From NCBI RefSeq assembly GCF_003334315.1, contig NZ_QOWR01000073.1: a DNA stretch of 16,845 bases; one strand, 5' to 3'. The stretch comes from Escherichia coli (GTDB lineage Bacteria; Pseudomonadota; Gammaproteobacteria; Enterobacterales; Enterobacteriaceae). Numbering within the stretch: the stretch's first letter is position 1; each line of letters begins with the position of its first letter. Positions 1-16,845 of this stretch are shown in pieces. Under the pieces are notes generated by a model. The model had not been told where the DNA came from, did not search any database, and saw only the letters and a program-made list of their open reading frames with translations. A program made the position numbers and the translations under genes.

Positions 1-357
1 GTCGGGGCTAAATCGCGCCAGCGCTGGCTGTTTTACGCGTATGACAGGCTCCGGAAGACGGTTGTTGCGCACGTATTCGGTGAACGCACTATGGCGACGC
101 TGGGGCGTCTTATGAGCCTGCTGTCACCCTTTGACGTGGTGATATGGATGACGGATGGCTGGCCGCTGTATGAATCCCGCCTGAAGGGAAAGCTGCACGT
201 AATCAGCAAGCGATATACGCAGCGAATTGAGCGGCATAACCTGAATCTGAGGCAGCACCTGGCACGGCTGGGACGGAAGTCGCTGTCGTTCTCAAAATCG
301 GTGGAGCTGCATGACAAAGTCATCGGGCATTATCTGAACATAAAACACTATCAATAA
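1..357 (+). CDS. insB: IS1 transposase InsB, C-terminal part (5'-truncated by window edge)
   Basis: Open frame from base 1 to TAA at 355-357; the ORF-track 88 aa segment (91..357) is the in-frame tail of InsB. Confidence 0.85.
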
Positions 358-372
358 GTTGGAGTCATTACC
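1..372 (+). mobile_element. Partial IS1 insertion sequence (3' portion, including the right terminal inverted repeat; 5' part lies outside the window)
   Basis: Frame-1 translation from base 1 reads the InsB C-terminal region (...[14 protein letters not shown]...[55 protein letters not shown]...HYQ*). The sequence ends with the characteristic IS1 terminus ...aaacactatcaataagttggagtcattacc at 343-372. Recognised from memory of IS1, not by search. Confidence 0.85.
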
Positions 373-386
373 CATCGCGTCTTATT

Positions 387-470
387 GCCGGATGCGGCGT
401 GAACACCTTATCCAGCACACATCTGGCAGCGGCTATAGGTCTGATAAGACGCGTTAGCGTCGCATCAGAC
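387..470. repeat. REP/BIME element: two REP units in opposite orientation
   Basis: gccggatgcggcgtgaacaccttatccagc (387-~416) and inverted unit taggtctgataagacgcgttagcgtcgcatcagac (435-470) are typical enterobacterial REP palindromes; located between the IS1 end and the yggR stop. Confidence 0.8.
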
Positions 471-520
471 ATTTATTGCCTTTGTAGGCCCAATAAGCTT
501 GCGCATCGGGCATGGCAACG

Positions 521-1501
521 TCACAAACGCCCTTCCCCCACCCGGTGCTGATAACTCTGCTGAAACGTTATCATCCCCACCTGCTGCCCGGTTTGAATAA
601 CATGCGGTAACTGGTGGGTTTTCCCTTCGCGAATCAAATTCCCCACCGCGGGTGTGTTAATCAGCAATTCAAATAGCGCCACGCGTCCTTCCTGTTTATC
701 CACTTCCAGCTTTTGTGACAACACGGCCCGTAAACTCCCTGCCAGTTGATTACGTACGGGATCTTTTTCCTGCGCCGGAAATGAATCCACCAGTCGCTCA
801 ACTGACTGCGCGGCACCACGCGTATGTAATGTTGCCAGCACCAAATGCCCGGTTTCTGCCGCCGTCAGTGCCAGACGGATTGTCTCGCTGTCACGCAGCT
901 CTCCGAGCAAAATCACATCAGGATCTTCCCGCAATGCGGCCCGCAATCCCGATGCGAACGTCATACAGTGCAAACCAATTTCCCGCTGCTGGATCAAACA
1001 TCGCTGGCTGGCATAGAGATATTCAACAGGATCTTCCAGCGTCAGAATATGCGCATCGGCATGTTGATTGAGATAGCCAACCATCGCCGCCAGCGTGGTA
1101 GATTTGCCGCTCCCCGTCGCCCCCGTCACCAGAATCAGGCCATTCTCGCTCTTGAGTAATTCCGGCAATACCGTTGGTGCGCCAAGCTGTTCGAGCTGCG
1201 GGCAGTGCGAAGGTAACAGCCGTAACGCCAGCGAAATGCCATGCCGTTGCGCGAATGCGCTGCCACGCAATCGCTGGTTTTCCGCCAGCGACACGGCAAA
1301 ATCCAGCTGGCCATTTTCCAGCAATATTGCCCGCTGATCGTCATCCAGCCACTCCCGCAGTAGCTCTTCGACGTCCGGCGCATCAAACGGCGCAGCTTCC
1401 ATTAGCCCGCGAATGCGCCATCGTGCGGGCCAGGCGCTGCACAGGTGTAGATCCGAGACGTTATGCTTTACACTAAGGGCCACAATTTCTTCCATATTCA
1501 T
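521..1501 (-). CDS. yggR: PilT-like type IV pilus retraction ATPase family protein YggR (326 aa)
   Basis: ORF 521..1576 (-); start trimmed to MNMEEIVALSVKHNVSDLH... (ATG at 1501) because a GAGGA Shine-Dalgarno lies 7 nt upstream and the longer version would overlap yggS. Walker A motif GATGSGKST present. Confidence 0.9.
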   Translation of the reverse strand: MNMEEIVALSVKHNVSDLHLCSAWPARWRIRGLMEAAPFDAPDVEELLREWLDDDQRAILLENGQLDFAVSLAENQRLRGSAFAQRHGISLALRLLPSHCPQLEQLGAPTVLPELLKSENGLILVTGATGSGKSTTLAAMVGYLNQHADAHILTLEDPVEYLYASQRCLIQQREIGLHCMTFASGLRAALREDPDVILLGELRDSETIRLALTAAETGHLVLATLHTRGAAQSVERLVDSFPAQEKDPVRNQLAGSLRAVLSQKLEVDKQEGRVALFELLINTPAVGNLIREGKTHQLPHVIQTGQQVGMITFQQSYQHRVGEGRL

Positions 1502-1518
1502 ACTAAGATCCTCGGAAA

Positions 1519-2223
1519 ATGAACGATATTGCGCATAACCTGGCACAGGTCCGGGACAAAATCTCAGCGGCTGCAACGCGTTGCGGCCGTTCTCCAGAAG
1601 AAATTACGCTGCTTGCAGTCAGTAAAACAAAACCTGCGAGCGCCATCGCAGAAGCCATTGATGCCGGGCAGCGTCAATTTGGTGAAAACTACGTTCAGGA
1701 AGGGGTAGATAAAATTCGCCACTTTCAGGAACTGGGCGTAACAGGATTAGAATGGCATTTTATTGGCCCGTTGCAGTCTAATAAAAGCCGCCTGGTGGCA
1801 GAGCATTTCGACTGGTGTCATACCATCGACCGTTTGCGCATCGCTACCCGTCTCAACGACCAGCGCCCGGCAGAACTTCCCCCTCTTAACGTTCTGATTC
1901 AAATTAACATTAGTGATGAAAACAGTAAGTCCGGGATTCAACTGGCTGAACTGGACGAGCTGGCAGCTGCGGTCGCTGAACTACCGCGTTTACGTCTGCG
2001 CGGGTTGATGGCAATCCCTGCGCCTGAGTCAGAATATGTAAGGCAGTTTGAAGTTGCACGCCAAATGGCTGTAGCATTTGCCGGACTGAAAACGCGCTAC
2101 CCGCATATCGACACGCTCTCTCTGGGAATGTCGGACGATATGGAAGCCGCCATTGCGGCAGGTAGCACGATGGTTCGTATCGGCACTGCAATTTTTGGTG
2201 CGCGTGATTACTCTAAAAAATAA
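1519..2223 (+). CDS. yggS: PLP homeostasis protein (YggS/PLPBP family, alanine racemase-fold PLP-binding)
   Basis: 234 aa ORF MNDIAHNLAQVRDKISAAA...; conserved lysine-containing N-terminal motif LLAVSKTKP; start only 17 bp from the divergent yggR start. Confidence 0.9.
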   Translation: MNDIAHNLAQVRDKISAAATRCGRSPEEITLLAVSKTKPASAIAEAIDAGQRQFGENYVQEGVDKIRHFQELGVTGLEWHFIGPLQSNKSRLVAEHFDWCHTIDRLRIATRLNDQRPAELPPLNVLIQINISDENSKSGIQLAELDELAAAVAELPRLRLRGLMAIPAPESEYVRQFEVARQMAVAFAGLKTRYPHIDTLSLGMSDDMEAAIAAGSTMVRIGTAIFGARDYSKK

Positions 2224-2240
2224 GGAATTAAAGGAACGCC

Positions 2241-2807
2241 ATGAATACGTTGACTTTCCTGCTTTCAACGGTCATTGAGCTGTATACCATGGTGCTGTTA
2301 TTACGCATCTGGATGCAGTGGGCTCATTGTGATTTTTACAACCCCTTCTCACAGTTTGTAGTGAAGGTAACGCAGCCAATTATCGGGCCACTGCGCCGCG
2401 TTATTCCGGCAATGGGGCCAATTGACAGCGCCTCGCTGCTGGTTGCCTATATTCTCAGTTTTATCAAAGCCATCGTGCTGTTTAAAGTGGTGACCTTCCT
2501 GCCAATCATCTGGATTGCCGGTTTACTGATTCTGCTGAAAACCATCGGCCTGCTGATTTTCTGGGTCCTGCTGGTGATGGCGATTATGAGCTGGGTAAGC
2601 CAAGGGCGTAGCCCGATTGAATACGTGCTGATTCAGCTGGCCGATCCGCTGCTGCGCCCGATTCGCCGCCTGCTACCGGCAATGGGTGGGATTGATTTCT
2701 CGCCGATGATCCTCGTTCTGCTGCTGTATGTCATCAATATGGGTGTCGCAGAAGTATTACAGGCAACCGGAAATATGCTGCTGCCAGGGCTGTGGATGGC
2801 GTTATGA
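2241..2807 (+). CDS. yggT: YggT family integral membrane protein
   Basis: 188 aa hydrophobic ORF with a duplicated YGGT-type repeat; 17 bp after the yggS stop with GGAA SD-like sequence. Confidence 0.88.
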
Positions 2808-3094
2808 ATGCCGTAACAGTTAATGATGACGGTCTGGTTTTACGGCTCTATATTCAGCCGAAAGCCAGCCGTGATTCTATTGTCGGTTTACATGGCGACG
2901 AAGTTAAAGTCGCCATTACCGCGCCGCCGGTTGACGGCCAGGCCAACAGCCATCTGGTGAAGTTTCTCGGTAAGCAATTCCGGGTAGCCAAAAGCCAGGT
3001 GGTAATTGAAAAAGGCGAACTTGGCCGCCACAAACAAATTAAAATCATTAATCCGCAACAAATCCCGCCAGAAATCGCGGCGTTAATTAATTAG
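2804..3094 (+). CDS. yggU: DUF167 family protein YggU (96 aa)
   Basis: ORF 2792..3094; start assigned to ATG 2804 ([24 protein letters not shown]...), which overlaps the yggT stop as ATGA. Confidence 0.85.
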
Positions 3095-3101
3095 GTATCC
3101 T

Positions 3102-3695
3102 ATGCAAAAAGTTGTCCTCGCAACCGGCAATGCCGGTAAAGTGCGTGAGCTGGCGTCGCTGCTTAGCGACTTCGGTCTTGATATCGTGGCCCAAACAGAC
3201 CTCGGCGTAGATTCCGCTGAAGAAACCGGCCTGACCTTTATCGAAAACGCGATTCTGAAAGCGCGCCATGCGGCAAAAGTGACCGGTTTACCGGCAATTG
3301 CCGACGACTCTGGTCTGGCGGTAGATGCGCTGGGTGGCGCGCCGGGTATTTACTCCGCGCGTTATTCCGGTGAAGACGCGACCGATCAAAAGAATCTGCA
3401 AAAACTGTTGGAAACACTGAAAGACGTACCGGACGACCAACGTCAGGCGCGTTTCCACTGCGTGCTGGTATATCTGCGTCACGCGGAAGATCCCACTCCG
3501 CTGGTGTGCCACGGTAGCTGGCCGGGCGTGATTACTCGTGAACCAGCGGGCACTGGTGGCTTTGGTTATGATCCAATCTTCTTCGTACCTTCCGAAGGGA
3601 AAACCGCTGCCGAACTGACCCGCGAAGAAAAGAGCGCCATTTCCCACCGTGGTCAGGCATTGAAACTGCTGTTGGACGCTTTACGTAATGGTTAA
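3102..3695 (+). CDS. rdgB: dITP/XTP pyrophosphatase (non-canonical purine NTPase, Ham1/RdgB family)
   Basis: 197 aa [19 protein letters not shown]...; family motifs TGNxGK and FGYDPIF present. Confidence 0.92.
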
Positions 3696-4824
3696 ATTAC
3701 CGCCGCTGAGTCTCTACATTCACATCCCGTGGTGCGTGCAGAAATGCCCGTACTGCGATTTCAACTCTCACGCGTTGAAAGGAGAAGTGCCGCACGACGA
3801 TTACGTTCAGCATCTGCTTTGCGATCTGGACAATGATGTGGCTTACGCTCAGGGCCGTGAAGTAAAGACAATCTTTATTGGCGGTGGTACGCCGAGCCTG
3901 CTTTCCGGCCCGGCGATGCAAACGCTGCTGGACGGCGTGCGTGCGCGTTTGCCGCTGGCAGCGGATGCAGAAATTACTATGGAAGCGAACCCTGGTACGG
4001 TAGAAGCCGATCGCTTTGTCGATTATCAGCGTGCTGGTGTGAACCGCATCTCTATTGGTGTGCAGAGTTTTAGCGAAGAAAAGCTGAAACGACTTGGGCG
4101 CATTCATGGCCCGCAAGAAGCGAAACGAGCGGCAAAGCTGGCGAGCGGTTTAGGGTTACGTAGCTTTAACCTTGATTTGATGCATGGACTACCGGATCAA
4201 TCACTGGAAGAGGCGCTTGGCGATCTACGCCAGGCCATTGAACTGAATCCGCCGCATCTTTCCTGGTATCAACTGACCATCGAACCCAATACGCTGTTTG
4301 GTTCGCGACCACCGGTGCTGCCGGACGACGACGCGCTGTGGGATATATTCGAACAGGGGCATCAGTTATTAACCGCAGCGGGTTATCAGCAATATGAAAC
4401 TTCCGCTTACGCCAAACCCAGTTATCAGTGCCAGCACAATCTCAACTACTGGCGCTTTGGCGACTACATCGGTATTGGCTGCGGCGCGCACGGCAAAGTG
4501 ACCTTCCCGGATGGGCGCATTCTGCGTACCACTAAAACGCGTCATCCGCGTGGTTTTATGCAAGGAAGGTATCTGGAAAGCCAGCGTGATGTCGAAGCCG
4601 CAGATAAGCCGTTTGAGTTCTTTATGAACCGCTTTCGCTTGCTGGAGGCCGCGCCACGCGCAGAGTTTAGTGCGTATACCGGGCTTTGCGAAGATGTGAT
4701 TCGCCCACAGTTAGACGAGGCGATTGCCCAGGGTTATCTCACCGAATGTGCGGATTACTGGCAGATAACGGAACATGGGAAGCTGTTTTTAAATTCGCTG
4801 CTGGAGCTTTTTCTGGCTGAGTAA
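3688..4824 (+). CDS. hemW: Radical SAM family heme chaperone HemW (coproporphyrinogen III oxidase-like)
   Basis: 378 aa ORF with a CxxxCxYC radical-SAM cluster motif (CVQKCPYC); start overlaps the rdgB 3' end by 8 nt. Confidence 0.9.
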
Positions 4825-4833
4825 ACTTGTATT

Positions 4834-4952
4834 GCCGGATGCGGCGTGAACGCCTTATCCAGCCGACATGTGGCAGCGGTTGTAGGTCTGATAAGACGCG
4901 CAAGCGTCGCATCAGACGTTGATTGCCGGATGCGGGGTCAACGCCGCATCCT
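4834..4952. repeat. REP/BIME cluster (three REP-like palindromic units)
   Basis: gccggatgcggcgtgaacgccttatccagc (4834-~4863), inverted unit taggtctgataagacgcgcaagcgtcgcatcagac (4881-~4916), third unit gccggatgcggggtcaacgccgcatcc (4925-~4951). Lies between the convergent hemW and yggM 3' ends. Confidence 0.8.
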
Positions 4953-4978
4953 GCTACAAATCGTGCACTATATCAAAC

Positions 4979-5986
4979 TTACTTAATCACCCCATTGCGC
5001 CGCAGTTGTTCGGTATCTTTTTTCCAGCGTTCATTAGCTTGGTTGATATCGTCAATTTTCATCAAAATCGCGACTTTTTTACTGTTTATTTCTGAAACTT
5101 TCATCGTTAACGGATATTGCCCTTTTTCGAGCGTTACCCAGTCATCCTGCAATTTACGGCTGAGTTTTTGTGATTGCAGAAAAGTCTGTCGCCGTTGTTC
5201 GTTGATATCGAAATCTCGTTTCTGCTGAATCGGCACTTCATAACACTCTTCACTCTGTTTATGACATGCCGCAATCGCCGGTTGATAAACCTCTTTGTCA
5301 TATTTAACCGCGAACGCCTCGCTATCGTTCTGTTTATTAAACTCATCACGCTGTTGGTGAATTTTTTTAAAGGCTTCTTCACGGGTCATTTGCTTACCGT
5401 TTGCATCTTTTCCCCAATATGCATCCGCTGCTTTCTGCGCCGCCACCATTTGCTTATCAAGCGCTTTCACTTCCTTTTCCAGCGCAGGAATCGAGTTCTT
5501 CTGGGTATTCAACGCAGATTCAAGCTGACTAAAGCGATAATTGAAATCTTCGCTATTCACGATCAGATATTTATTATTCGTTTTGATATCGTCGACCACC
5601 CGCCCACGATCGCTGGCTGCCGCCTGAAAAGAGTAAAAGTTCACCGACCAGCCAGACGCGGGCGTTCCTTTACTGGTTAACATCGCCGAGAATTTTACCG
5701 GTTTATCTTTCGTCCAGGTCTGTTCGAGCAGTTCGTAATCTGCCAACTGACCGACCCAGGTATAGAGATCGTCACTGGAAGAGACATCGCCTTCCGCTGA
5801 CCAGGTGGCCTGATTACCCTTAGCATCAAGATTTTTTAAGGTGATAGCATCAAGCTTGAGAATGCCGTGATACTGCTTTTTGAATTGATCTTTTAAGATA
5901 TTTTCAGTTGGCGGTTCGCCATCTGCCCAGACATTACCAGTCATCAACATAAGCAGCGCCGTGCCAACAATCCATTGCTTTTTCAC
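4979..5986 (-). CDS. yggM: Secreted protein of unknown function YggM (DUF1202-like), N-terminal signal peptide
   Basis: 335 aa ORF MKKQWIVGTALLMLMTGNVWADGEPP...; signal peptide with an AxA-type cleavage site (VWA/DG); K/E/Q-rich, probably coiled-coil C-terminal half. Confidence 0.85.
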   Translation of the reverse strand: MKKQWIVGTALLMLMTGNVWADGEPPTENILKDQFKKQYHGILKLDAITLKNLDAKGNQATWSAEGDVSSSDDLYTWVGQLADYELLEQTWTKDKPVKFSAMLTSKGTPASGWSVNFYSFQAAASDRGRVVDDIKTNNKYLIVNSEDFNYRFSQLESALNTQKNSIPALEKEVKALDKQMVAAQKAADAYWGKDANGKQMTREEAFKKIHQQRDEFNKQNDSEAFAVKYDKEVYQPAIAACHKQSEECYEVPIQQKRDFDINEQRRQTFLQSQKLSRKLQDDWVTLEKGQYPLTMKVSEINSKKVAILMKIDDINQANERWKKDTEQLRRNGVIK

Positions 5987-6067
5987 CCGAAAACCCTCGC
6001 GCAGAATAATTTATTCCGGTGATTATCATTAGGGTAATTAAAATTGGCAATGGACGTGAGTCTGAAG

Positions 6068-6094
6068 TGAAAAAGCCCCGGCACGATACCGGGG
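6068..6094 (-). terminator. Rho-independent terminator downstream of ansB
   Basis: Minus-strand transcript carries hairpin ccccggtatcgtgccgggg (perfect 7 bp GC-rich stem, plus coordinates 6076-6094) followed by cttttt, starting about 8 nt after the ansB stop. Confidence 0.7.
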
Positions 6095-6102
6095 CGAGGC
6101 GA

Positions 6103-7149
6103 TTAGTACTGATTGAAGATCTGCTGGATCTGCTGCGGATCTTTGGTTTGCGTCAGAGCCAGTTGCAGCAGAACGCGCGCTTTTTGCGGGTTCAGCGTGC
6201 CAGAGGCGACGAAGCCGTATTTCGCATCATCCACTTCGGCATCCTGAGTGGTAGCGCCCGTCGGTACGCGGGAAGAACGCACGACTGCAGTACCGGTTTT
6301 CGCGGCGGTCGCCAGCGTGTCGAACACAGATTTATACAGGTTGCCGTTACCCACACCAGCGCTAACGATGCCATCATAGCCCGCATCTACCAGTGCTTTA
6401 GCCGGAAGATCGGATGCGTTAGCGTAGTTATAAACAATGCCGACTTTCGGCAGTTCATTCAGCTTAGAGACATCGAATGGCGTGTCGCTGGTATGCTTAC
6501 GTGCCGGGGTACGCTGGTAGTCAATCTTACCGTTGTGAATGTAACCCAGAGGACCGTAGTTAACAGACTTGAAGGTCGCTACGTCGGTGGTGTTGGTTTT
6601 GGTGACGTCACGGCCATCAAGCACGGTGTCATTCATCACTACCAGCACGCCACGGTTGGCGGAGGCTTTATCAGCTGCGGTCACTACCGCGTTATACAGG
6701 TTGAATGGACCGTCTGCGCTCATGGACGTGGACGGGCGCATTGCGCCGACCATCACCACCGGTTTGTCGCATTTCACCGTCAGGTCGAGGAAGTAAGCGG
6801 TTTCTTCCATCGTGTCGGTACCGTGGGTAATGACGAAGCCGTCGGTTTTATCGCAGTCGGTGTTAATTTTTTTCGCCAGTGTCAGCCAGACATTATCGTT
6901 CATGTCCTGGGAGCCGATATTCACTACCTGCTCGCCTTTAACGTTCGCAATGTCCTTCAGTTGCGGCACCGCATTAACCAGATTTTCTACGCCAACTTTA
7001 CCCGCTGTGTAGTTAGATTTGGTTGCGGAGTCACCACCACCGGCAATGGTCCCGCCGGTTGCTAAAATGGTGATATTGGGTAATGCCAATGCTGCACCAC
7101 TAAAACCCATAACCAGTGCGGCAAGTGCCGTCTTTTTGAAAAACTCCAT
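6103..7149 (-). CDS. ansB: Periplasmic L-asparaginase II
   Basis: 348 aa ORF MEFFKKTALAALVMGFSGAALALPNITILATGGTIAGGG...; signal peptide followed by the asparaginase active-site motif TGGTIAG. Confidence 0.95.
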   Translation of the reverse strand: MEFFKKTALAALVMGFSGAALALPNITILATGGTIAGGGDSATKSNYTAGKVGVENLVNAVPQLKDIANVKGEQVVNIGSQDMNDNVWLTLAKKINTDCDKTDGFVITHGTDTMEETAYFLDLTVKCDKPVVMVGAMRPSTSMSADGPFNLYNAVVTAADKASANRGVLVVMNDTVLDGRDVTKTNTTDVATFKSVNYGPLGYIHNGKIDYQRTPARKHTSDTPFDVSKLNELPKVGIVYNYANASDLPAKALVDAGYDGIVSAGVGNGNLYKSVFDTLATAAKTGTAVVRSSRVPTGATTQDAEVDDAKYGFVASGTLNPQKARVLLQLALTQTKDPQQIQQIFNQY

Positions 7150-7179
7150 TTCATTCCTCCAGTTACGTGAACGCTACGC

Positions 7180-7220
7180 ATTATCCCTTAGCTTTGTATG
7201 GGAAAATTGACGTTAAACAA
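7180..7220 (-). promoter_or_regulatory. ansB promoter: FNR-like site (7207-7220) plus -10 hexamer (7180-7185)
   Basis: On the coding strand TTGTTTAACGTCAA matches the FNR consensus TTGAT-N4-ATCAA at 8/10 positions; GATAAT lies about 21-26 bp downstream, the spacing expected for a class II site centred near -41.5. ansB is known to be anaerobically induced by FNR (established knowledge); the site assignment itself is by eye. Confidence 0.55.
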
Positions 7221-7255
7221 TTTACAACATGAATATATTTTGGAGATCTACAAAG

Positions 7256-7271
7256 TTAGAGGCAGGTAACA
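7256..7271 (-). promoter_or_regulatory. Possible weak CRP/FNR-type upstream site of the ansB promoter
   Basis: Coding-strand TGTTAcctgccTCTAA, about 50 bp upstream of the FNR-like site (expected -91.5 geometry); poor match to TGTGA-N6-TCACA. Confidence 0.3.
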
Positions 7272-7285
7272 AAACGAAGAATTAA

Positions 7286-7310
7286 ACGGCATAAAAAAGT
7301 ATTATGCCGT
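7286..7310 (-). terminator. Putative terminator downstream of yggN
   Basis: Inverted repeat acggcataa/ttatgccgt (9 bp stem, 7 nt loop) about 15 nt beyond the yggN stop; on the minus strand it is followed by a moderately T-rich tract (ttaattcttcgtttt). Confidence 0.4.
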
Positions 7311-7324
7311 CTTAAAATAGAGGA

Positions 7325-8044
7325 TTATTTTAAATTCCCGACCAGGGCTTTGCGGCTATCTTCCAGAGTCACAACGCGGCTACAAACATCTTTGCCAAAC
7401 TGCTGGAAATCTTTTTCCTGCTTTTTCCACTCGGTTTGGATTGAGGATTGCAGCCCCCCCAGGCTTCCCAGCACATTCTGTAATGGGTTACCGCCGCTTT
7501 TCAGCACCGCTTTCGCGCCCATTTCATTAATGCTGTCCTGTAAAATTCCACCCATTGCCTGATTCACTAATTGCTGGCCTTCGGCGCGAACCTGATCAAT
7601 GGCTTTATAGTGAAACGTCAGGCCATCGCTGCGCGTTTCAATAATGCGGTTCATCTGCTCTTTCAGCTGCGCATCAAGTTTGGTCAGACGGCTGCGCATT
7701 TTGCTGCTTTCGCCCATCTCCTGAACGATAATTTTATCCAGAGCAATACGGGCTTTCTCGACGCGGCTTTTCGCGCCTTCATCAATCCACGGCAGCGTGC
7801 TGCGTAGTTCAGCCTGATAATCCTTCGCCTGCTCGCGCTGGGCGGCATTCAGGGAATATTGCTTACCGTTATACATCACGTTGCCGTCTGGCGTGATCAC
7901 CAGATTGCCGTTTTCGCCCTTCACCTGCACGGTTTGCGGGCTGACAATCACATCGTCACGCGGCGTGACGTTGCACTGGTAGTCGGCGTGAGCGGTCATT
8001 GCCGTCACTGAAAGTGCTGCCGCCAGCAGCATTTTGCGCATCAT
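7325..8044 (-). CDS. yggN: Secreted protein of unknown function YggN (DUF2884-like), N-terminal signal peptide
   Basis: 239 aa ORF MMRKMLLAAALSVTAMTAHADYQCN...; signal peptide; good SD (GAGGGAAG) upstream. Confidence 0.85.
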   Translation of the reverse strand: MMRKMLLAAALSVTAMTAHADYQCNVTPRDDVIVSPQTVQVKGENGNLVITPDGNVMYNGKQYSLNAAQREQAKDYQAELRSTLPWIDEGAKSRVEKARIALDKIIVQEMGESSKMRSRLTKLDAQLKEQMNRIIETRSDGLTFHYKAIDQVRAEGQQLVNQAMGGILQDSINEMGAKAVLKSGGNPLQNVLGSLGGLQSSIQTEWKKQEKDFQQFGKDVCSRVVTLEDSRKALVGNLK

Positions 8045-8116
8045 AGTCTTCCCTCAAGAAAAAATCAGGCCAGCATTTGCTGGCCCCAGATTGATAACAA
8101 AGTACGCGTTTTCCAT

Positions 8117-8195
8117 GCCGGATGCGGCGTAAACACCTTATCCCGCCTACTCGATCGTGCATCTTTCCAGGCCTGATAAGCGTAGCGCATCAGGC
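8117..8195. repeat. REP/BIME element (two REP units in opposite orientation)
   Basis: gccggatgcggcgtaaacaccttatcccgcctac (8117-8150) and gcctgataagcgtagcgcatcaggc (8171-8195); between the yggL 3' end and the yggN 5' end. Confidence 0.8.
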
Positions 8196-8227
8196 AGTTT
8201 TGCATTTGTCATCGCCCGTATGCTTTC

Positions 8228-8554
8228 TTAGTCCCACCAAACGTCGAAAAGTTCGCTGGTGCGTACCTCATCCAGTTTGCGCTCTTCCAGCCACTTACGC
8301 ACAATCGCCTGATGTTCTTCGGTGCATTTGCCGATTTCCTGCATGCAGATCAGACCTTCCCAGGCCAGATAACCGCTGCCGTCAAAGGCCAGTTTGTTCG
8401 GTTCGATAACCTCGTTAATAAAATCATCAACGGTTTTATCAATCTGTTCTTCCGATGTACCTTCCGGGAATCGCCATGCCACCGAAAATCCTAATTCCTG
8501 GAATTCGTCGATGTGCATTTTTTTACGCAGACGACGGCTACGGTTCTTTGCCAT
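8228..8554 (-). CDS. yggL: DUF469 family protein YggL (108 aa)
   Basis: ORF 8228..8584; start trimmed to [23 protein letters not shown]... (ATG 8554-8552), which overlaps the trmB stop as TAATG. Confidence 0.85.
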   Translation of the reverse strand: MAKNRSRRLRKKMHIDEFQELGFSVAWRFPEGTSEEQIDKTVDDFINEVIEPNKLAFDGSGYLAWEGLICMQEIGKCTEEHQAIVRKWLEERKLDEVRTSELFDVWWD

Positions 8555-9273
8555 TATTTCACCCTCTCGAACATTAAGTCCCATACTCCGTGACCAAGAC
8601 GATGACCACGTTGTTCAAATTTCGTCACCGGACGTGATGCCGGACGCGGTACGTAATCATTGCTCTCTGACAGGTTTTTATAACCGTCAATAGAAGACAT
8701 CACTTCAAGCATATGTTCCGCATAAGGTTCCCAGTCGGTCGCCATATGGAATACGCCCCCCAGCTGCAGTTTGCTTTTTACCAGTTCGGCAAACGGCACC
8801 TGAACGATACGGCGTTTATTATGGCGCGCTTTGTGCCACGGGTCAGGGAAAAAGAGCTGCACCATGCGCAATGAATTGTCAGGAATCATTTTATGCAGCA
8901 CTTCAACCGCATCGTGACACATCACGCGCAGGTTGCTTAAACCTTCTTCATGCGCAGAAGCCAGGCACGCACCAACGCCCGGTGAATGCACTTCAATGCC
9001 GAGGAAGTCCTGCTCAGGGCGATCTTTAGCCATTGCCACCAGCGACGCCCCCATGCCAAAACCAATCTCAAGCGTCACCGGCGCTTCACGGCCAAAAAGC
9101 GCGGGGAAATCCAGCATATCTTCGCTGAACTCAACGCCCATCACCGGCCAGTAGTTTTCCAGCGCATGTTCCTGGCCTTTGGTCAGTCGCCCCTGGCGGC
9201 GCACAAAACTACGGATACGGCGCAGTGGGCGGCCGTTTTCATCAAATTCCGGTGAAATGACGTCGTTTTTCAT
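8554..9273 (-). CDS. trmB: tRNA (guanine46-N7)-methyltransferase
   Basis: 239 aa [46 protein letters not shown]...; SAM-binding motif region EIGFGMG. Confidence 0.92.
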
Positions 9274-9433
9274 AAAGGTTTAGTCGCTTGTGAAAGTGTT
9301 CTGAAAACGGGCATTATCCAAAGTTAGTTGCCGGATGCAAGCATGATAAGGCCGTGGCTGCGGAAAGTTCCGGTTTACACCCTGCCGTCGCTGTGCTGCA
9401 ATCTTGCCCCCAACAACAGTGAATTCGGTGACC

Positions 9434-10486
9434 ATGCAAGCGTCGCAATTTTCAGCCCAGGTTCTGGACTGGTACGATAAATACGGGCGAAAAACTCTGC
9501 CCTGGCAAATTGACAAGACGCCCTACAAAGTATGGCTCTCAGAAGTGATGTTGCAACAAACTCAGGTTGCGACCGTTATCCCCTATTTTGAACGCTTTAT
9601 GGCGCGCTTCCCGACGGTGACCGATCTCGCCAATGCGCCGCTCGACGAAGTTCTCCACTTGTGGACCGGGCTTGGCTATTACGCCCGCGCGCGCAATCTG
9701 CATAAAGCGGCACAACAAGTGGCGACCTTACACGGCGGTAAATTCCCGGAAACCTTTGAGGAAGTTGCAGCACTGCCGGGCGTCGGGCGTTCCACCGCAG
9801 GCGCGATTCTCTCGCTTTCTCTGGGTAAGCACTTTCCGATTCTCGACGGTAACGTCAAACGGGTGCTGGCGCGCTGCTATGCTGTAAGCGGCTGGCCAGG
9901 GAAAAAAGAGGTCGAGAATAAATTATGGAGTTTGAGCGAGCAGGTGACGCCCGCGGTTGGCGTGGAACGGTTTAATCAGGCGATGATGGATTTGGGTGCG
10001 ATGATTTGTACGCGCTCGAAACCGAAATGTTCGCTCTGTCCGCTACAAAACGGATGTATTGCCGCCGCCAACAATAGCTGGGCGCTTTATCCGGGCAAAA
10101 AACCGAAACAGACGCTGCCGGAGCGCACCGGCTACTTTTTGCTATTACAGCACGAAGATGAAGTATTGCTGGCGCAGCGTCCGCCGAGCGGATTGTGGGG
10201 CGGTTTATACTGTTTCCCGCAGTTTGCCGACGAAGAAAGTTTGCGGCAGTGGCTGGCGCAACGGCAGATTGCTGCCGATAACCTGACGCAACTGACCGCG
10301 TTTCGGCATACCTTCAGCCATTTCCACTTAGATATTGTGCCTATGTGGCTTCCCGTGTCGTCATTCACCGGCTGCATGGATGAAGGCAATGCGCTCTGGT
10401 ATAACTTAGCGCAACCGCCGTCAGTTGGCCTGGCGGCTCCCGTGGAGCGTTTGTTACAGCAGTTACGCACTGGCGCGCCGGTTTAG
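9434..10486 (+). CDS. mutY: Adenine DNA glycosylase (A/G-specific) MutY, 350 aa
   Basis: ORF 9404..10486; start trimmed to [25 protein letters not shown]...; helix-hairpin-helix region and [4Fe-4S] cysteine cluster ([17 protein letters not shown]) present. Confidence 0.92.
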
Positions 10487-10510
10487 CGCGTGAGTCGATA
10501 AAGAGGATGA

Positions 10511-10789
<279 letters not shown>

Positions 10790-10795
10790 AAACAG

Positions 10796-10816
10796 TGCCG
10801 GAGCACGCCTCCGGCA
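10796..10816 (+). other. Stem-loop between yggX and mltC (no U-tract)
   Basis: tgccggag-cacgc-ctccggca, perfect 8 bp stem, 7 nt after the yggX stop; followed by aacttgcataaaaac rather than a T-run, so not a canonical intrinsic terminator. Confidence 0.4.
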
Positions 10817-10826
10817 ACTTGCATAA

Positions 10827-11933
<1,107 letters not shown>

Positions 11934-11944
11934 TTCCATTAACC

Positions 11945-11966
11945 GCCCCTGACGATGCTCAGGGGC
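11945..11966 (+). other. Stem-loop immediately downstream of mltC
   Basis: gcccctga-cgatgc-tcaggggc (8 bp stem), 11 nt after the mltC stop, followed by aaaaatg (no U-tract): possible weak terminator or RNA processing/stability element. Confidence 0.35.
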
Positions 11967-11971
11967 AAAAA

Positions 11972-11987
11972 TGTTATCCACATCACA
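11972..11987 (+). promoter_or_regulatory. Candidate CRP-binding site in the nupG upstream region
   Basis: TGTTAtccacaTCACA matches TGTGA-N6-TCACA at 9/10 positions, about 150 bp upstream of the nupG start. nupG is a known CRP/CytR-regulated gene (established knowledge); this site assignment is by eye. Confidence 0.45.
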
Positions 11988-12134
11988 ATTTCGTTTTGCA
12001 AATTGGGAATGTTTGCAATTATTTGCCACAGGTAACAAAAAACCAGTCCGCGAAGTTGATAGAATCCCATCATCTCGCACGGTCAAATGTGCTTTTTCAA
12101 ACACTCATCCGCATCACGATGTGAGGAAATTAAC

Positions 12135-13391
12135 ATGAATCTTAAGCTGCAGCTGAAAATCCTCTCTTTTCTGCAGTTCTGTCTGTGGGGAAGTTGGCTG
12201 ACGACCCTCGGTTCCTATATGTTTGTTACCCTGAAGTTTGACGGTGCTTCTATTGGCGCAGTTTATAGCTCACTGGGTATCGCCGCGGTCTTTATGCCTG
12301 CGCTGCTGGGGATTGTGGCCGACAAATGGTTAAGTGCGAAATGGGTATATGCCATTTGCCACACCATTGGCGCTATCACGCTGTTCATGGCGGCACAGGT
12401 CACGACGCCGGAGGCGATGTTCCTTGTGATATTGATTAACTCGTTTGCTTATATGCCAACGCTTGGGTTAATCAACACCATCTCTTACTATCGCCTGCAA
12501 AATGCCGGGATGGATATCGTTACTGACTTCCCGCCAATCCGTATCTGGGGCACCATCGGCTTTATCATGGCAATGTGGGTGGTGAGCCTGTCTGGCTTCG
12601 AATTAAGCCACATGCAGCTGTATATTGGCGCAGCTCTTTCCGCCGTTCTGGTTCTGTTTACCCTGACTCTGCCGCATATTCCGGTTGCTAAACAGCAAGC
12701 GAATCAGAGCTGGACAACCCTGCTGGGCCTCGATGCATTCGCGCTGTTTAAAAACAAGCGTATGGCAATCTTCTTCATCTTCTCAATGCTGCTGGGCGCG
12801 GAACTGCAGATTACCAACATGTTCGGTAATACCTTCCTGCACAGCTTCGACAAAGATCCGATGTTTGCCAGCAGCTTCATCGTGCAGCATGCGTCAATCA
12901 TCATGTCGATTTCGCAGATCTCTGAAACCCTGTTCATTCTGACCATCCCGTTCTTCTTAAGCCGCTACGGTATTAAGAACGTAATGATGATCAGTATTGT
13001 GGCGTGGATCCTGCGTTTTGCGCTGTTTGCTTACGGCGACCCGACTCCGTTCGGTACTGTACTGCTGGTACTGTCGATGATCGTTTACGGTTGCGCATTC
13101 GACTTCTTCAACATCTCTGGTTCGGTGTTTGTCGAAAAAGAAGTTAGCCCGGCAATTCGCGCCAGTGCACAAGGGATGTTCCTGATGATGACTAACGGCT
13201 TCGGCTGTATCCTCGGCGGCATCGTGAGCGGTAAAGTTGTTGAGATGTACACCCAAAACGGCATTACCGACTGGCAGACCGTATGGTTGATTTTCGCTGG
13301 TTACTCCGTGGTTCTGGCCTTCGCGTTCATGGCGATGTTCAAATATAAACACGTTCGTGTCCCGACAGGTACACAGACGGTTAGCCACTAA
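12135..13391 (+). CDS. nupG: Nucleoside:H+ symporter NupG (MFS-type transporter), 418 aa
   Basis: ORF 12087..13391; start trimmed to MNLKLQLKILSFLQFCLWGSWLTTLG... (ATG 12135) with SD gaggaa 8 nt upstream; 12-TM hydrophobic profile. Confidence 0.92.
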   Translation: MNLKLQLKILSFLQFCLWGSWLTTLGSYMFVTLKFDGASIGAVYSSLGIAAVFMPALLGIVADKWLSAKWVYAICHTIGAITLFMAAQVTTPEAMFLVILINSFAYMPTLGLINTISYYRLQNAGMDIVTDFPPIRIWGTIGFIMAMWVVSLSGFELSHMQLYIGAALSAVLVLFTLTLPHIPVAKQQANQSWTTLLGLDAFALFKNKRMAIFFIFSMLLGAELQITNMFGNTFLHSFDKDPMFASSFIVQHASIIMSISQISETLFILTIPFFLSRYGIKNVMMISIVAWILRFALFAYGDPTPFGTVLLVLSMIVYGCAFDFFNISGSVFVEKEVSPAIRASAQGMFLMMTNGFGCILGGIVSGKVVEMYTQNGITDWQTVWLIFAGYSVVLAFAFMAMFKYKHVRVPTGTQTVSH

Positions 13392-13401
13392 TTACGCAAA
13401 G

Positions 13402-13437
13402 AAAAACGGGTCGCCAGAAGGTGACCCGTTTTTTTTA
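13402..13437. terminator. Bidirectional rho-independent terminator between convergent nupG and speC
   Basis: aaaaa-acgggtcgcc-agaa-ggtgacccgt-tttttttt: 10 bp stem (one G.U), 4 nt loop, A-tract 5' and T-tract 3', so it reads as a terminator on both strands. Confidence 0.85.
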
Positions 13438-13440
13438 TTC

Positions 13441-15576
13441 TTACTTCAACACATAACCGTACAACCGTTTCATGCCATCCGCATCGGTTTCGCTATAAAC
13501 ACCTTGCAGCTCCGGCGAAAATCCCGGCAACAAATTCACCCCTTCTTCCAGTGCAAGGAAATAACGTTGAACCGCCCCACCCCAGACTTCCCCGGGTACC
13601 ACGCAAAGCACGCCAGGTGGATAAGGCAACGCCCCTTCTGCCGCAATTCGCCCTTCGGCATCACGAATCCGCACCAACTCCACGTCACCGCGAATATAAG
13701 CGCTATGCGCATCCTGGGGGTTCATCACCACTGACGGGAAACTCTGCTGGCGGAACATCGCTTTTTGTAGGTCTTTGACGTCGAAACTGACATACAGATC
13801 GTGCATCTCCTGACACAACTGGCGCAGGGTGTAGTCGCGATAGCGCACCGGATACTTGTTATAAACGCTCGGCAACACCTCAACCAGCGGCGAGTCATCC
13901 TCAATATGCTGTTCAAATTGCGCCAGCATCGCCACCAGTTGTGCCAGCTTCTCGTGGCTTTCCGCCGGAGTTAATAAAAACAGAATGGAGTTGAGATCGC
14001 ACTTCTCCGGCACAATGCCGTTCTCACGCAGATAGTGCGCCAGAATCGTCGCCGGAACGCCAAAGTCGCTATATTCGCCGGTTTCGGCATCGATACCTGG
14101 TGTAGTGAGTAACAGCTTGCACGGATCAACAAAATACTGATCCGCGGCATATCCTTCAAAGCCGTGCCACTTCGCCCCCGGCTCAAAACTGAAAAAACGG
14201 CGGTCGCTGGCTAACACTGATGTCGGATAATCCTGCCACAATTTGCCATCAACAACGGGCGGGATAAACGGGCGGAACAGCTTACAGCGCGCAAGAATAG
14301 CCTTGCGCGCTTCAATCCCTATCTCAACACACTCAGCCCACAGCCGACGCCCACTCTCCCCTTCATGAATTTTGGCGTTAACATCCAGTGCAGCAAACAG
14401 CGGATAGAAAGGGCTGGTAGAAGCATGGAGCATAAAGGCGTTATTCAACCGCTTATGCGGGCAAAAACGCGCCTGTCCGCGGATATGGTTATCTTTTTTA
14501 TGGATCTGCGACGTCTGTGAGAATCCCGCCTGCTGTTTGTGCACCGACTGAGTCACAAAGATCCCCGGATCGTTTTCGTTAAGTTCTAACAGCAGCGGCG
14601 AGCTATCCGCCATCATCGGGATAAATTGTTCATAACCGACCCACGCGGAATCAAACAGAATGTAATCACACAGATGCCCAACGGTATCGATCACCTGACG
14701 GGCGTTATAGACAGTGCCGTCATAGGTTCCCAGCTGAATAATCGCCAGGCGATACGGGCGCGGCAGGTCGGCTTTTTCTGGCGCAACGTCGCGAATTTGC
14801 TGGCGCAGATACTCTTCATTAAAACAGTGCGCATCAATACCGCCAATGAAACCAAACGGGTTGCGTGAAGCTTCCAGATAGACCGGCGTCGCCCCCGCCT
14901 GAATCAGCGCGCCGTGATGATTCGACTTATGGTTGTTACGGTCGAAGAGCACCAGATCGCCACGCGTTAACAGCGCATTCGTCACCACTTTATTCGCTGC
15001 CGATGTGCCGTTCAGCACAAAATAGGTTTTATCGGCATGAAAGACTTTGGCTGCGAATTTCTGCGCATCTTTCGCCGATCCTTCATGAATAAGCAGATCG
15101 CCCAATTTTACGTCAGCGTTACACATATCGGCGCGAAAGACGTTCTCACCAAAGAAATCGTAAAAATGGCGTCCGGCAGGATGCTTTTTAAAAAACGCAC
15201 CATGTTGATGTCCAGGGCAAGCAAAGGTGCTGTTGCCCATCTCAACGTACTGCGTCAGCGTGTCATAAAACGGTGGCAGCAAATTCTCTTCATACTGACA
15301 GGCTGCGGATTCCAGCTCCAGCCACTGCTGCTCGTTGCCGTTGATTACCGCCGTAACGCCCGCAGGTAATTCAACAGCATGTTTGGAATACAAAAACACC
15401 GGTAGATGAAAACCGGTGCGCTTAAGCAACGCAAGAATGCCACTGCGACTATCCGCAGCGGTAATGACGACTGCCGCGACGTCCGTAAAATCAGTATCTC
15501 CCAACGCCACCACGCGACGATGAGAAGAAAGTCGGGATACCAGTTCACTACTGGCGGCAATATTCATTGATTTCAT
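13441..15576 (-). CDS. speC: Ornithine decarboxylase (constitutive/biosynthetic type), 711 aa
   Basis: ORF 13441..15636; start trimmed to MKSMNIAASSELVSRLSSHRRVVALGDTDF... (ATG 15576); Orn/Lys/Arg decarboxylase family with a PLP-lysine region. Confidence 0.9.
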   Translation of the reverse strand: MKSMNIAASSELVSRLSSHRRVVALGDTDFTDVAAVVITAADSRSGILALLKRTGFHLPVFLYSKHAVELPAGVTAVINGNEQQWLELESAACQYEENLLPPFYDTLTQYVEMGNSTFACPGHQHGAFFKKHPAGRHFYDFFGENVFRADMCNADVKLGDLLIHEGSAKDAQKFAAKVFHADKTYFVLNGTSAANKVVTNALLTRGDLVLFDRNNHKSNHHGALIQAGATPVYLEASRNPFGFIGGIDAHCFNEEYLRQQIRDVAPEKADLPRPYRLAIIQLGTYDGTVYNARQVIDTVGHLCDYILFDSAWVGYEQFIPMMADSSPLLLELNENDPGIFVTQSVHKQQAGFSQTSQIHKKDNHIRGQARFCPHKRLNNAFMLHASTSPFYPLFAALDVNAKIHEGESGRRLWAECVEIGIEARKAILARCKLFRPFIPPVVDGKLWQDYPTSVLASDRRFFSFEPGAKWHGFEGYAADQYFVDPCKLLLTTPGIDAETGEYSDFGVPATILAHYLRENGIVPEKCDLNSILFLLTPAESHEKLAQLVAMLAQFEQHIEDDSPLVEVLPSVYNKYPVRYRDYTLRQLCQEMHDLYVSFDVKDLQKAMFRQQSFPSVVMNPQDAHSAYIRGDVELVRIRDAEGRIAAEGALPYPPGVLCVVPGEVWGGAVQRYFLALEEGVNLLPGFSPELQGVYSETDADGMKRLYGYVLK

Positions 15577-15973
15577 AAGCGCAAACCCGTTTCGGGGAAG
15601 TAAGAATACCGGACAAGGTGGAAAACCCTGCCCCATGAGATATGGGTCAAACTGGTCACCAGCTCCGACCGCCAGACATCAGTAAAAGCAGAAACGCTCT
15701 GATTTTACTGTTGTCCTGCAGTGAGCGTGCGTTAACTTCACCGCATGAGCAGTAACATAGAAAGGGAAACGTTTCGCGCGAAACGGCGATAAGCGAGAGA
15801 ATGTAAGGAGATGGCGTGCATCGGGCAAACTCCGTACAGAGAGGAGAAAATTCGCGCAATCATGGCACCTTTCGCTAAAGCGTGCAAGCCAGGACTTTGC
15901 GAACAAACAAGCCATCGACGGCACCAAACGGTCATAATAAGAAAATCAAACAATACAGTTAACAGGAACTCTT

Positions 15974-16681
15974 GTGGTCATCGGCCCTTTTATCAACGCT
16001 AGTGCAGTATTACTGGGTGGCGTTCTCGGCGCACTGCTCAGCCAACGCTTACCGGAACGTATCCGCGTCTCCATGACATCTATTTTTGGTCTGGCATCGC
16101 TGGGGATTGGTATTTTACTAGTGGTGAAATGTGCCAACCTTCCAGCGATGGTTTTAGCTACGCTACTTGGCGCTCTAATTGGCGAAATTTGTTTGCTGGA
16201 GAAAGGTGTCAATACAGCAGTCGCCAAAGCACAAAATCTGTTTCGTCACTCACGTAAGAAGCCAGCGCATGAATCTTTTATTCAGAATTATGTCGCGATT
16301 ATTGTCCTGTTTTGCGCCAGCGGCACCGGGATCTTCGGGGCGATGAACGAAGGGATGACCGGCGATCCGAGTATTTTAATCGCCAAGTCATTTCTTGATT
16401 TCTTTACGGCGATGATCTTCGCCTGCTCGCTGGGTATTGCGGTATCGGTGATTAGTATCCCATTACTGATCATCCAGTTAACGCTGGCGTGGGCTGCCGC
16501 GCTGATTTTACCGCTGACCACACCGTCGATGATGGCAGACTTCAGCGCCGTAGGCGGTTTATTGCTGCTGGCAACCGGATTACGCATCTGTGGCATTAAA
16601 ATGTTCCCGGTGGTCAACATGCTTCCAGCACTCCTTCTGGCAATGCCGCTTTCCGCCGCCTGGACCGCCTGGTTTGCCTGA
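15974..16681 (+). CDS. yqgA: DUF554 family inner membrane protein YqgA
   Basis: 235 aa hydrophobic [25 protein letters not shown]...; apparent GTG start (no in-frame ATG between the upstream stop at 15938-15940 and 15974) with SD agga 6 nt upstream. Confidence 0.85.
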
Positions 16682-16747
16682 CAATGCGTGCAATATCGGC
16701 AAAGTGATGATAGATTGTGCAGTCTGCAGTAAATTGAAGAAATTTGA

Positions 16748-16776
16748 TTGACGAGACGAGGCGAATCAGGTTTAAT
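16748..16776 (+). promoter_or_regulatory. Sigma70 promoter of the tRNA-Phe gene
   Basis: -35 TTGACG (16748-16753), 17 bp spacer, -10 TTTAAT (16771-16776), followed by GC-rich discriminator gcgcccc typical of stringently controlled stable-RNA promoters; positioned about 10 bp upstream of the tRNA 5' end. Confidence 0.6.
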
Positions 16777-16786
16777 GCGCCCCGTT

Positions 16787-16845
16787 GCCCGGATAGCTCA
16801 GTCGGTAGAGCAGGGGATTGAAAATCCCCGTGTCCTTGGTTCGAT
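16787..16845 (+). tRNA. pheV: tRNA-Phe (anticodon GAA), 5' 59 nt; 3' end truncated by the window
   Basis: GCCCGGATAGCTCAGTCGGTAGAGCAGGGGATTGAAAATCCCCGTGTCCTTGGTTCGAT: acceptor/D-arm/anticodon loop (cuGAAaa) and start of the T-arm (GGTTCGAT). Assigned as pheV rather than pheU from the yqgA-adjacent context. Confidence 0.9.

Follow-up and report, generated by a model that had tools for sequence, protein, structure and literature searches.

The last 23 nt of the Escherichia coli tRNA gene pheV are the attB core for P4-type tyrosine integrases, and the same gene is used by the she/SHI-1 island of Shigella flexneri. Genomic islands at this site (GI-pheV) were reported for E. coli at a frequency of 52% among complete genomes and of 34% among those of phylogroup A, and they include PAI-pheV of CFT073, PAI V of strain 536 and the pheV island of O157 (Nhu et al. 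2024, PLoS Genet, PMC11537424). The gene of a P4-type integrase, intP4, directly adjoins pheV and is the only gene conserved among GI-pheV islands; the repeat attR, of 23 bp or 19 bp, is present in only 27 of 41 islands, and those without it are smaller (PMC11537424).

Integration at this site proceeds by recombination between the attP of the circular form of the island and the 23-nt pheV core, carried out by the P4-type tyrosine integrase. The island brings a replacement tRNA 3' end together with its own terminator hairpin, so that the tRNA gene stays intact (attL), and an imperfect copy of the core, 22-23 nt in length (attR), remains at the far end of the island, beside yghD. We compared the two sequences that occur downstream of pheV, one with the terminator hairpin of the island and one with the native hairpin, and the sequence features of this mechanism were confirmed in other genomes. 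In the empty state, that of K-12 and 14EC001, CTAATTCTTAAGAACCCGCCCACAAGGCGGG and then yghD come directly after the CCA of pheV, and the sequence CTAATTCTTAAGAACCCGCC marks the empty site ahead of yghD. K-12 thus has pheV, its own terminator and then yghD, a site without integrase, and its homology with island-bearing relatives ends exactly at the CCA of pheV. At the far end of the islands attR has the form TTCGATTCCGAGTCCGG(G)CACCA and adjoins yghD. The island of BE311, with Ag43, a CbtA/YeeU toxin-antitoxin pair and DUF4942 among its cargo, ends with TTCGATTCCGAGTCCGG-CACCA, which reproduces 22 of the 23 nt at the tRNA 3' end and is followed by the flank that K-12 has after pheV; this is the repeat given in Table 1 of PMC11537424. 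The BE311 attR places the att core at tRNA positions 54-76, and three of the matches to the empty junction (H147-H149) begin at tRNA position 54.

The number of genomes in either state was evaluated in a set of 5,426 complete E. coli genomes, all of which matched the yqgA-pheV stretch. The arrangement yqgA-pheV-intP4 was matched in 3,338 of them, a number obtained at a query coverage of at least 80% and slightly overcounted, as a few matches have no yqgA part, and the empty yqgA-pheV-yghD junction in 1,526. These counts and the published study (PMC11537424) agree with the initial annotation of the DNA studied here in considering the 3' end of pheV an attachment site of integrase-bearing islands.

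The pheV fragment at the right edge of the window

The window, by which we mean the whole stretch of 16,845 nt analysed, had been described as ending in a tRNA-Phe of pheV type, cut in its T-arm, and this description is confirmed. All the tRNA bases present (59, see the table below) coincide with nt 1-59 of tRNA-Phe, which is 76 nt long, and the Rfam tRNA model RF00005 aligns with them at 40.5 bits (gathering score 29, E = 1.1e-5), over model positions 1-57 of 71 and with the 3' end flagged as cut. The last base of the window is tRNA position 59, within the T-loop, so that a complete cloverleaf, with the 3' strand of the acceptor and the encoded CCA, is not found in the window, which contains 59 of the 76 nt. 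Because the cloverleaf is incomplete, cut by the window edge, ARAGORN reported no tRNA in the window; the intact copy of the relative cM2a was recognised by the same program as tRNA-Phe with anticodon GAA, and the full gene is present in every relative inspected. Concerning the att core, its first 6 nt are inside the window and the other 17 outside.

Upstream of the tRNA the gene order is speC-yqgH-yqgA, and the tRNA begins 105 nt past yqgA. In K-12 MG1655 the tRNA that follows yqgA is annotated pheV (b2967), whereas pheU is found between dicD and cadC. Since yqgA precedes it at this distance, the gene is pheV and not pheU. E. coli has two identical genes for tRNA-Phe(GAA), and the feature is the promoter-proximal 59 nt of the one named pheV.

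Features of the window, with the strand and the basis of each assignment
Feature	Positions	Strand	Basis
3' part of IS1 (end of insB and right inverted repeat ...AAGTTGGAGTCATTACC), joined to the ruvX-yggR spacer at 372/373	1-372	+	
yqgA (DUF554 membrane protein), left flank of pheV	15974-16681	+	ORF list; annotated in all relatives and in K-12
Promoter-like region: TTGACG (16748-16753), 17-nt spacer, TTTAAT (16771-16776), then GCGCCCC	16748-16776	+	Read from the sequence
77 nt shared exactly with the pheU locus (leader 18 nt, tRNA 59 nt)	16769-16845	+	Longest exact window suffix in the K-12 pheU locus
5' 59 nt of tRNA-Phe(GAA) pheV, positions 1-59 of 76	16787-16845	+	Rfam, exact comparison, K-12 annotation
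Anticodon GAA	16820-16822	+	Direct reading; ARAGORN gaa at tRNA position 34 of the identical full copy
First 6 nt (TTCGAT) of the 23-nt att core	16840-16845	+	BE311 attR, Table 1 of PMC11537424

The feature had initially been given as extending over 16748-16845. Its end is correct, while its start has to be moved, as the tRNA begins at 16787 and 16748 is the first base of a -35-like hexamer. Bases 16748-16786 form a promoter-like stretch ahead of the tRNA, GC-rich after TTTAAT. In the alignment with the pheU paralogue both hexamers, TTGACG and TTTAAT, are kept and the spacer between them differs. A strict consensus promoter scan of 16500-16845 called no site, and a literature search on the pheV promoter gave nothing directly relevant; from inspection and from the conservation between pheV and pheU we infer that TTGACG-17-TTTAAT would be the pheV promoter region.

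The paralogue pheU possesses the same 76-nt tRNA and the same 18 nt of leader, whereas its flanks (dicD and cadC) differ from those of pheV (yqgA and yghD), and it is yqgA that the window contains. It is also an island site, where LEE and others integrate. In the K-12 pheU locus a yjdQ integrase pseudogene or remnant lies nearby, and pheU is followed by AATTCATAT.AACGGACCTCCACGGAGGTCCGTTTTTCGTTTCAG (L018 700-751), near-identical to the island side of attL at pheV (L002 28491-28545). The K-12 pheU site appears, from these sequences, to be occupied by a decayed island that belongs to the family of the pheV islands.

Occupancy of pheV in the closest relatives

Relatives were ranked by similarity to window positions 373-16845, leaving out the IS1 part. 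A previous ranking on the whole window was rejected as biased, because the IS1 piece added coverage and genomes with IS1 near pheV were favoured; the ranking without IS1 revealed the empty-site genome 14EC001 and other island types. The nearest genomes are S171-1 and EC20-72C-1, with 2 mismatches in 16,473 positions, and six further genomes have 3 mismatches each over the same part of the window. The two mismatches of the nearest genomes are at positions 492 and 2603, where the window has A and all the closest genomes have G. These two bases are absent from the 5,426 complete E. coli genomes, none of which matches window positions 373-2900 perfectly, and from the two other collections searched, so both SNPs are private.

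In S171-1 and EC20-72C-1 pheV is followed by intP4, 198 bp downstream, by one IS1, by a 133-nt IS1 fragment and then by the pitB-gss spacer, the insert being ~2.6 kb in total. Similar IS1-eroded stumps occur in cM2a, HS30-1, FACU 2024, ST12468, W5-6 and S30. Considering the two closest genomes and five others, the stump measures 1.7-6.2 kb, has no attR and has its yghD side deleted. An attR-like repeat, with up to 4 errors allowed, was absent from all 14 relatives' loci scanned, which cover 7-16 kb downstream. Since attR has been lost, a stump of this kind cannot excise.

In the two closest relatives ~26 kb of backbone are deleted, including gsp/sslE, glc and pitB. Homology with the pitB-gss region of K-12 resumes flush with the right end of IS1 (in L001, L002, L003, L006, L009, L012, L013 and L014), within pitB or shortly past it, which on the K-12 map is ~26 kb away from pheV. 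It does so at three different points (L004 29142, 29357 and 29559), a pattern that repeated adjacent deletions by IS1 would produce. The junctions indicate that independent or stepwise IS1-mediated adjacent deletions removed the distal part of the island, attR, gsp/sslE, glc and pitB. What lies past the tRNA in the closest relatives is thus mostly an IS1-eroded stump accompanied by the ~26 kb deletion, not a cargo-rich island.

A tyrosine integrase follows pheV in 14 of the 15 close relatives inspected, and where the divergence does not exceed 3 mismatches per 16.5 kb (seven genomes inspected) it is always located 177-198 bp past pheV and followed by IS1. The pheV-adjacent integrase of the relatives, WP_032161224.1 (420 aa), contains Arm-DNA-bind_3, Phage_int_M and Phage_integrase, that is the P4-type layout; its N-terminal and central domains match CP4-like integrase structures, and the motifs HGFR and AAYIH were recognised by eye in the translation.

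The integrase gene next to pheV was observed truncated by IS1 in ST12468 (L003 28688-29371) and frameshifted in TL20 (L016 464-1716), from which it follows that the integrase is decaying in part of the lineage.

Concerning the other relatives, NT1F34 (4 mismatches) has a different integrase with ArdA and restriction-enzyme remnants, strain 97.3 has an integrase of 394 aa at 1.65 kb from pheV, and other cargo follows the integrase in L6-21, PSS-13, TL20 and F467. The empty site of K-12 type is found in 14EC001, which is ~10 mismatches away and has a different allele of the YqgA protein.

Compared with K-12 MG1655, the left flank and the tRNA of the window are 99.8% identical over 3.4 kb, with the same promoter-like region. 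However, K-12 has no integrase after pheV, and the sequence type of the window is that of the occupied genomes, which have no mismatch in the last ~3-3.4 kb, against 6 for K-12. Compared with GI-pheV as published (PMC11537424), the closest relatives of the window have the same yqgA-pheV site and the same intP4-type integrase, the same 23-nt att core was recovered, and small islands without attR are found in both. The differences are that the ~2.6 kb insert of the closest relatives is below the minimum of 9.7 kb quoted in the text of that study, and that their backbone is deleted to pitB/gss. The window itself has only the 5' part of the tRNA, on the attB/attL-proximal side, without visible island DNA.

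What would follow the tRNA in the source genome

The source sequence was read to 16845 only, and any content past this position is an extrapolation from relatives; the initial annotation had rightly observed that the window, stopping in the T-loop, cannot show what follows the tRNA. An integrase, of whatever island type, very probably follows pheV in the source genome. Judging from the closest genomes, an intP4-type integrase gene would lie ~200 bp past the missing 17 nt of the tRNA, and after it an IS1-eroded stump without attR, hence unable to excise; IS1-mediated adjacent deletions would have taken the rest of the island and ~26 kb of chromosome as far as gss, with the glc operon, pitB and the type II secretion genes gsp/sslE. 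We attribute a high probability to this reading as a whole (pheV, intP4-type integrase, eroded stump without attR and ~26 kb deletion). The more specific expectation of a minimal stump of S171-1 type, which is a subset of the case with an integrase, has only a slightly better than even chance.

The extrapolation has against it the variability of the site within the lineage, where the empty state, other integrases and other cargo all occur, and two other outcomes have to be weighed. If the site were empty, pheV would run through the native terminator into yghD and the gsp genes, with no integrase and no island. The frequency of the empty junction among complete genomes (1,526 of 5,426), its presence in one inspected relative, 14EC001, and the figure of just 34% for GI-pheV in phylogroup A (PMC11537424) speak for this outcome, but 14EC001 is ~10 mismatches off and carries another YqgA allele, whereas every one of the seven genomes inspected at 3 mismatches or fewer is occupied. 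Moreover, the occupied relatives are identical to the window in the last 3.4 kb, where K-12 shows its 6 differences, and we consider an empty site very unlikely.

The opposite outcome, a large and intact, potentially mobile island with the integrase, tens of kb of cargo and attR by yghD, as in BE311, H10407 and CFT073, is quite improbable too. Such islands are common at pheV, and L6-21, PSS-13, TL20, F467 and NT1F34 do possess additional cargo beyond the integrase; in the two closest genomes and five others, however, there are only the 1.7-6.2 kb stumps, with attR and the yghD side gone, and no attR-like repeat was present in the loci of the 14 relatives, though these cover just 7-16 kb downstream.

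Under the preferred reading, that of an eroded stump, a search beyond the edge for a second copy of the tRNA 3' end (attR) would probably fail. Such a result would be a false negative, because the closest relatives have the integrase but no second copy; a missing attR is not evidence of a missing island at pheV. The strain most likely has, on the basis of its relatives, a decayed integrase/IS1 stump and is devoid of gsp/sslE, glc and pitB, rather than possessing a virulence island, and the net change at the site would then be gene loss, not gain.

The observation that the window ends at an island integration site is correct but ordinary, because pheV is a thoroughly documented landing site. 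All of it matches the published description of GI-pheV and is already known; the 2024 study already catalogues pheV occupancy, integrase alleles and att repeats, and the observation matters little by itself. Mildly unusual are only the very small stump of the closest relatives and the private IS1 beside yggR. In practice, the annotation of the window should give pheV as its last feature.

IS1 and the two ends of the window

The part of IS1 with which the window begins matches IS1 copies of the relatives' loci at 100% identity, and its junction is located ~36 nt past the ruvX stop; the rest of the window consists of E. coli chromosomal DNA that extends from yggR to pheV. When 240 nt spanning the junction were compared by megablast with the 5,426 complete E. 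coli genomes, just chance matches of 84-88% appeared, and the exact 46-nt junction pattern had no match in GTDB representative genomes or in JGI metagenome contigs. Being absent from all three collections, the junction is private to the source strain. In an IS1-rich genome with such a private IS1 beside yggR, the region may be rearranged further. The earlier proposal that accessory content would lie just past the right edge is consequently to be corrected in part: it is still expected there, in the form of a stump, but IS1 is already present inside the window, at its left end.

The IS1 transposase of the window is on the + strand, and the IS1 following intP4 in the two closest genomes (L012 and L013), at 1750-2517 nt from the start of pheV, has the opposite orientation. 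If the source shares this downstream IS1, the segment from yggR to pheV-intP4 would stand between inverted IS1 copies. There is a small chance that the ~19-kb yggR-pheV-intP4 segment so bracketed would be the product of an IS1 inversion, or a composite-transposon-like unit, which, if true, would carry a tRNA attachment site together with its integrase. Nothing in the window separates either of these from the simple case, an IS1 inserted in the ruvX-yggR spacer.

The position of the right edge may itself have a technical origin, since the 77-nt match with pheU corresponds to a common k of de Bruijn assemblers and the window begins within IS1. The tRNA would then be cut because a short-read contig broke in the pheU/pheV repeat, rather than by arbitrary slicing. 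The window stops after exactly 77 nt identical to the pheU locus, its opposite end is also inside a multi-copy element, and 16,845 is not a round length. On the other hand, the left 372 nt of IS1 carry no signature of k = 77, the IS1 variant sites being at 6-75 and not at 78; the pheU comparison was made with K-12, not with the source lineage; and a single coincidence of this kind, with a chance of a few percent, is not proof. A contig end is thus a possible explanation, to which we give somewhat less than an even chance.

A Shigella origin of the window, which IS1 and the she island at pheV might evoke, was judged unlikely, as only 2-4 mismatches per 16.5 kb separate the sequence from E. coli genomes of commensal type. 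Between hemW and yggM the window contains a REP-type element (4885-4955, - strand), which matches the Rfam family naRNA4 (RF02564) with 60.9 bits against a gathering score of 59.5. Strain W5-6 is without ~64-91 nt at this element, so that the REP copy number is polymorphic.
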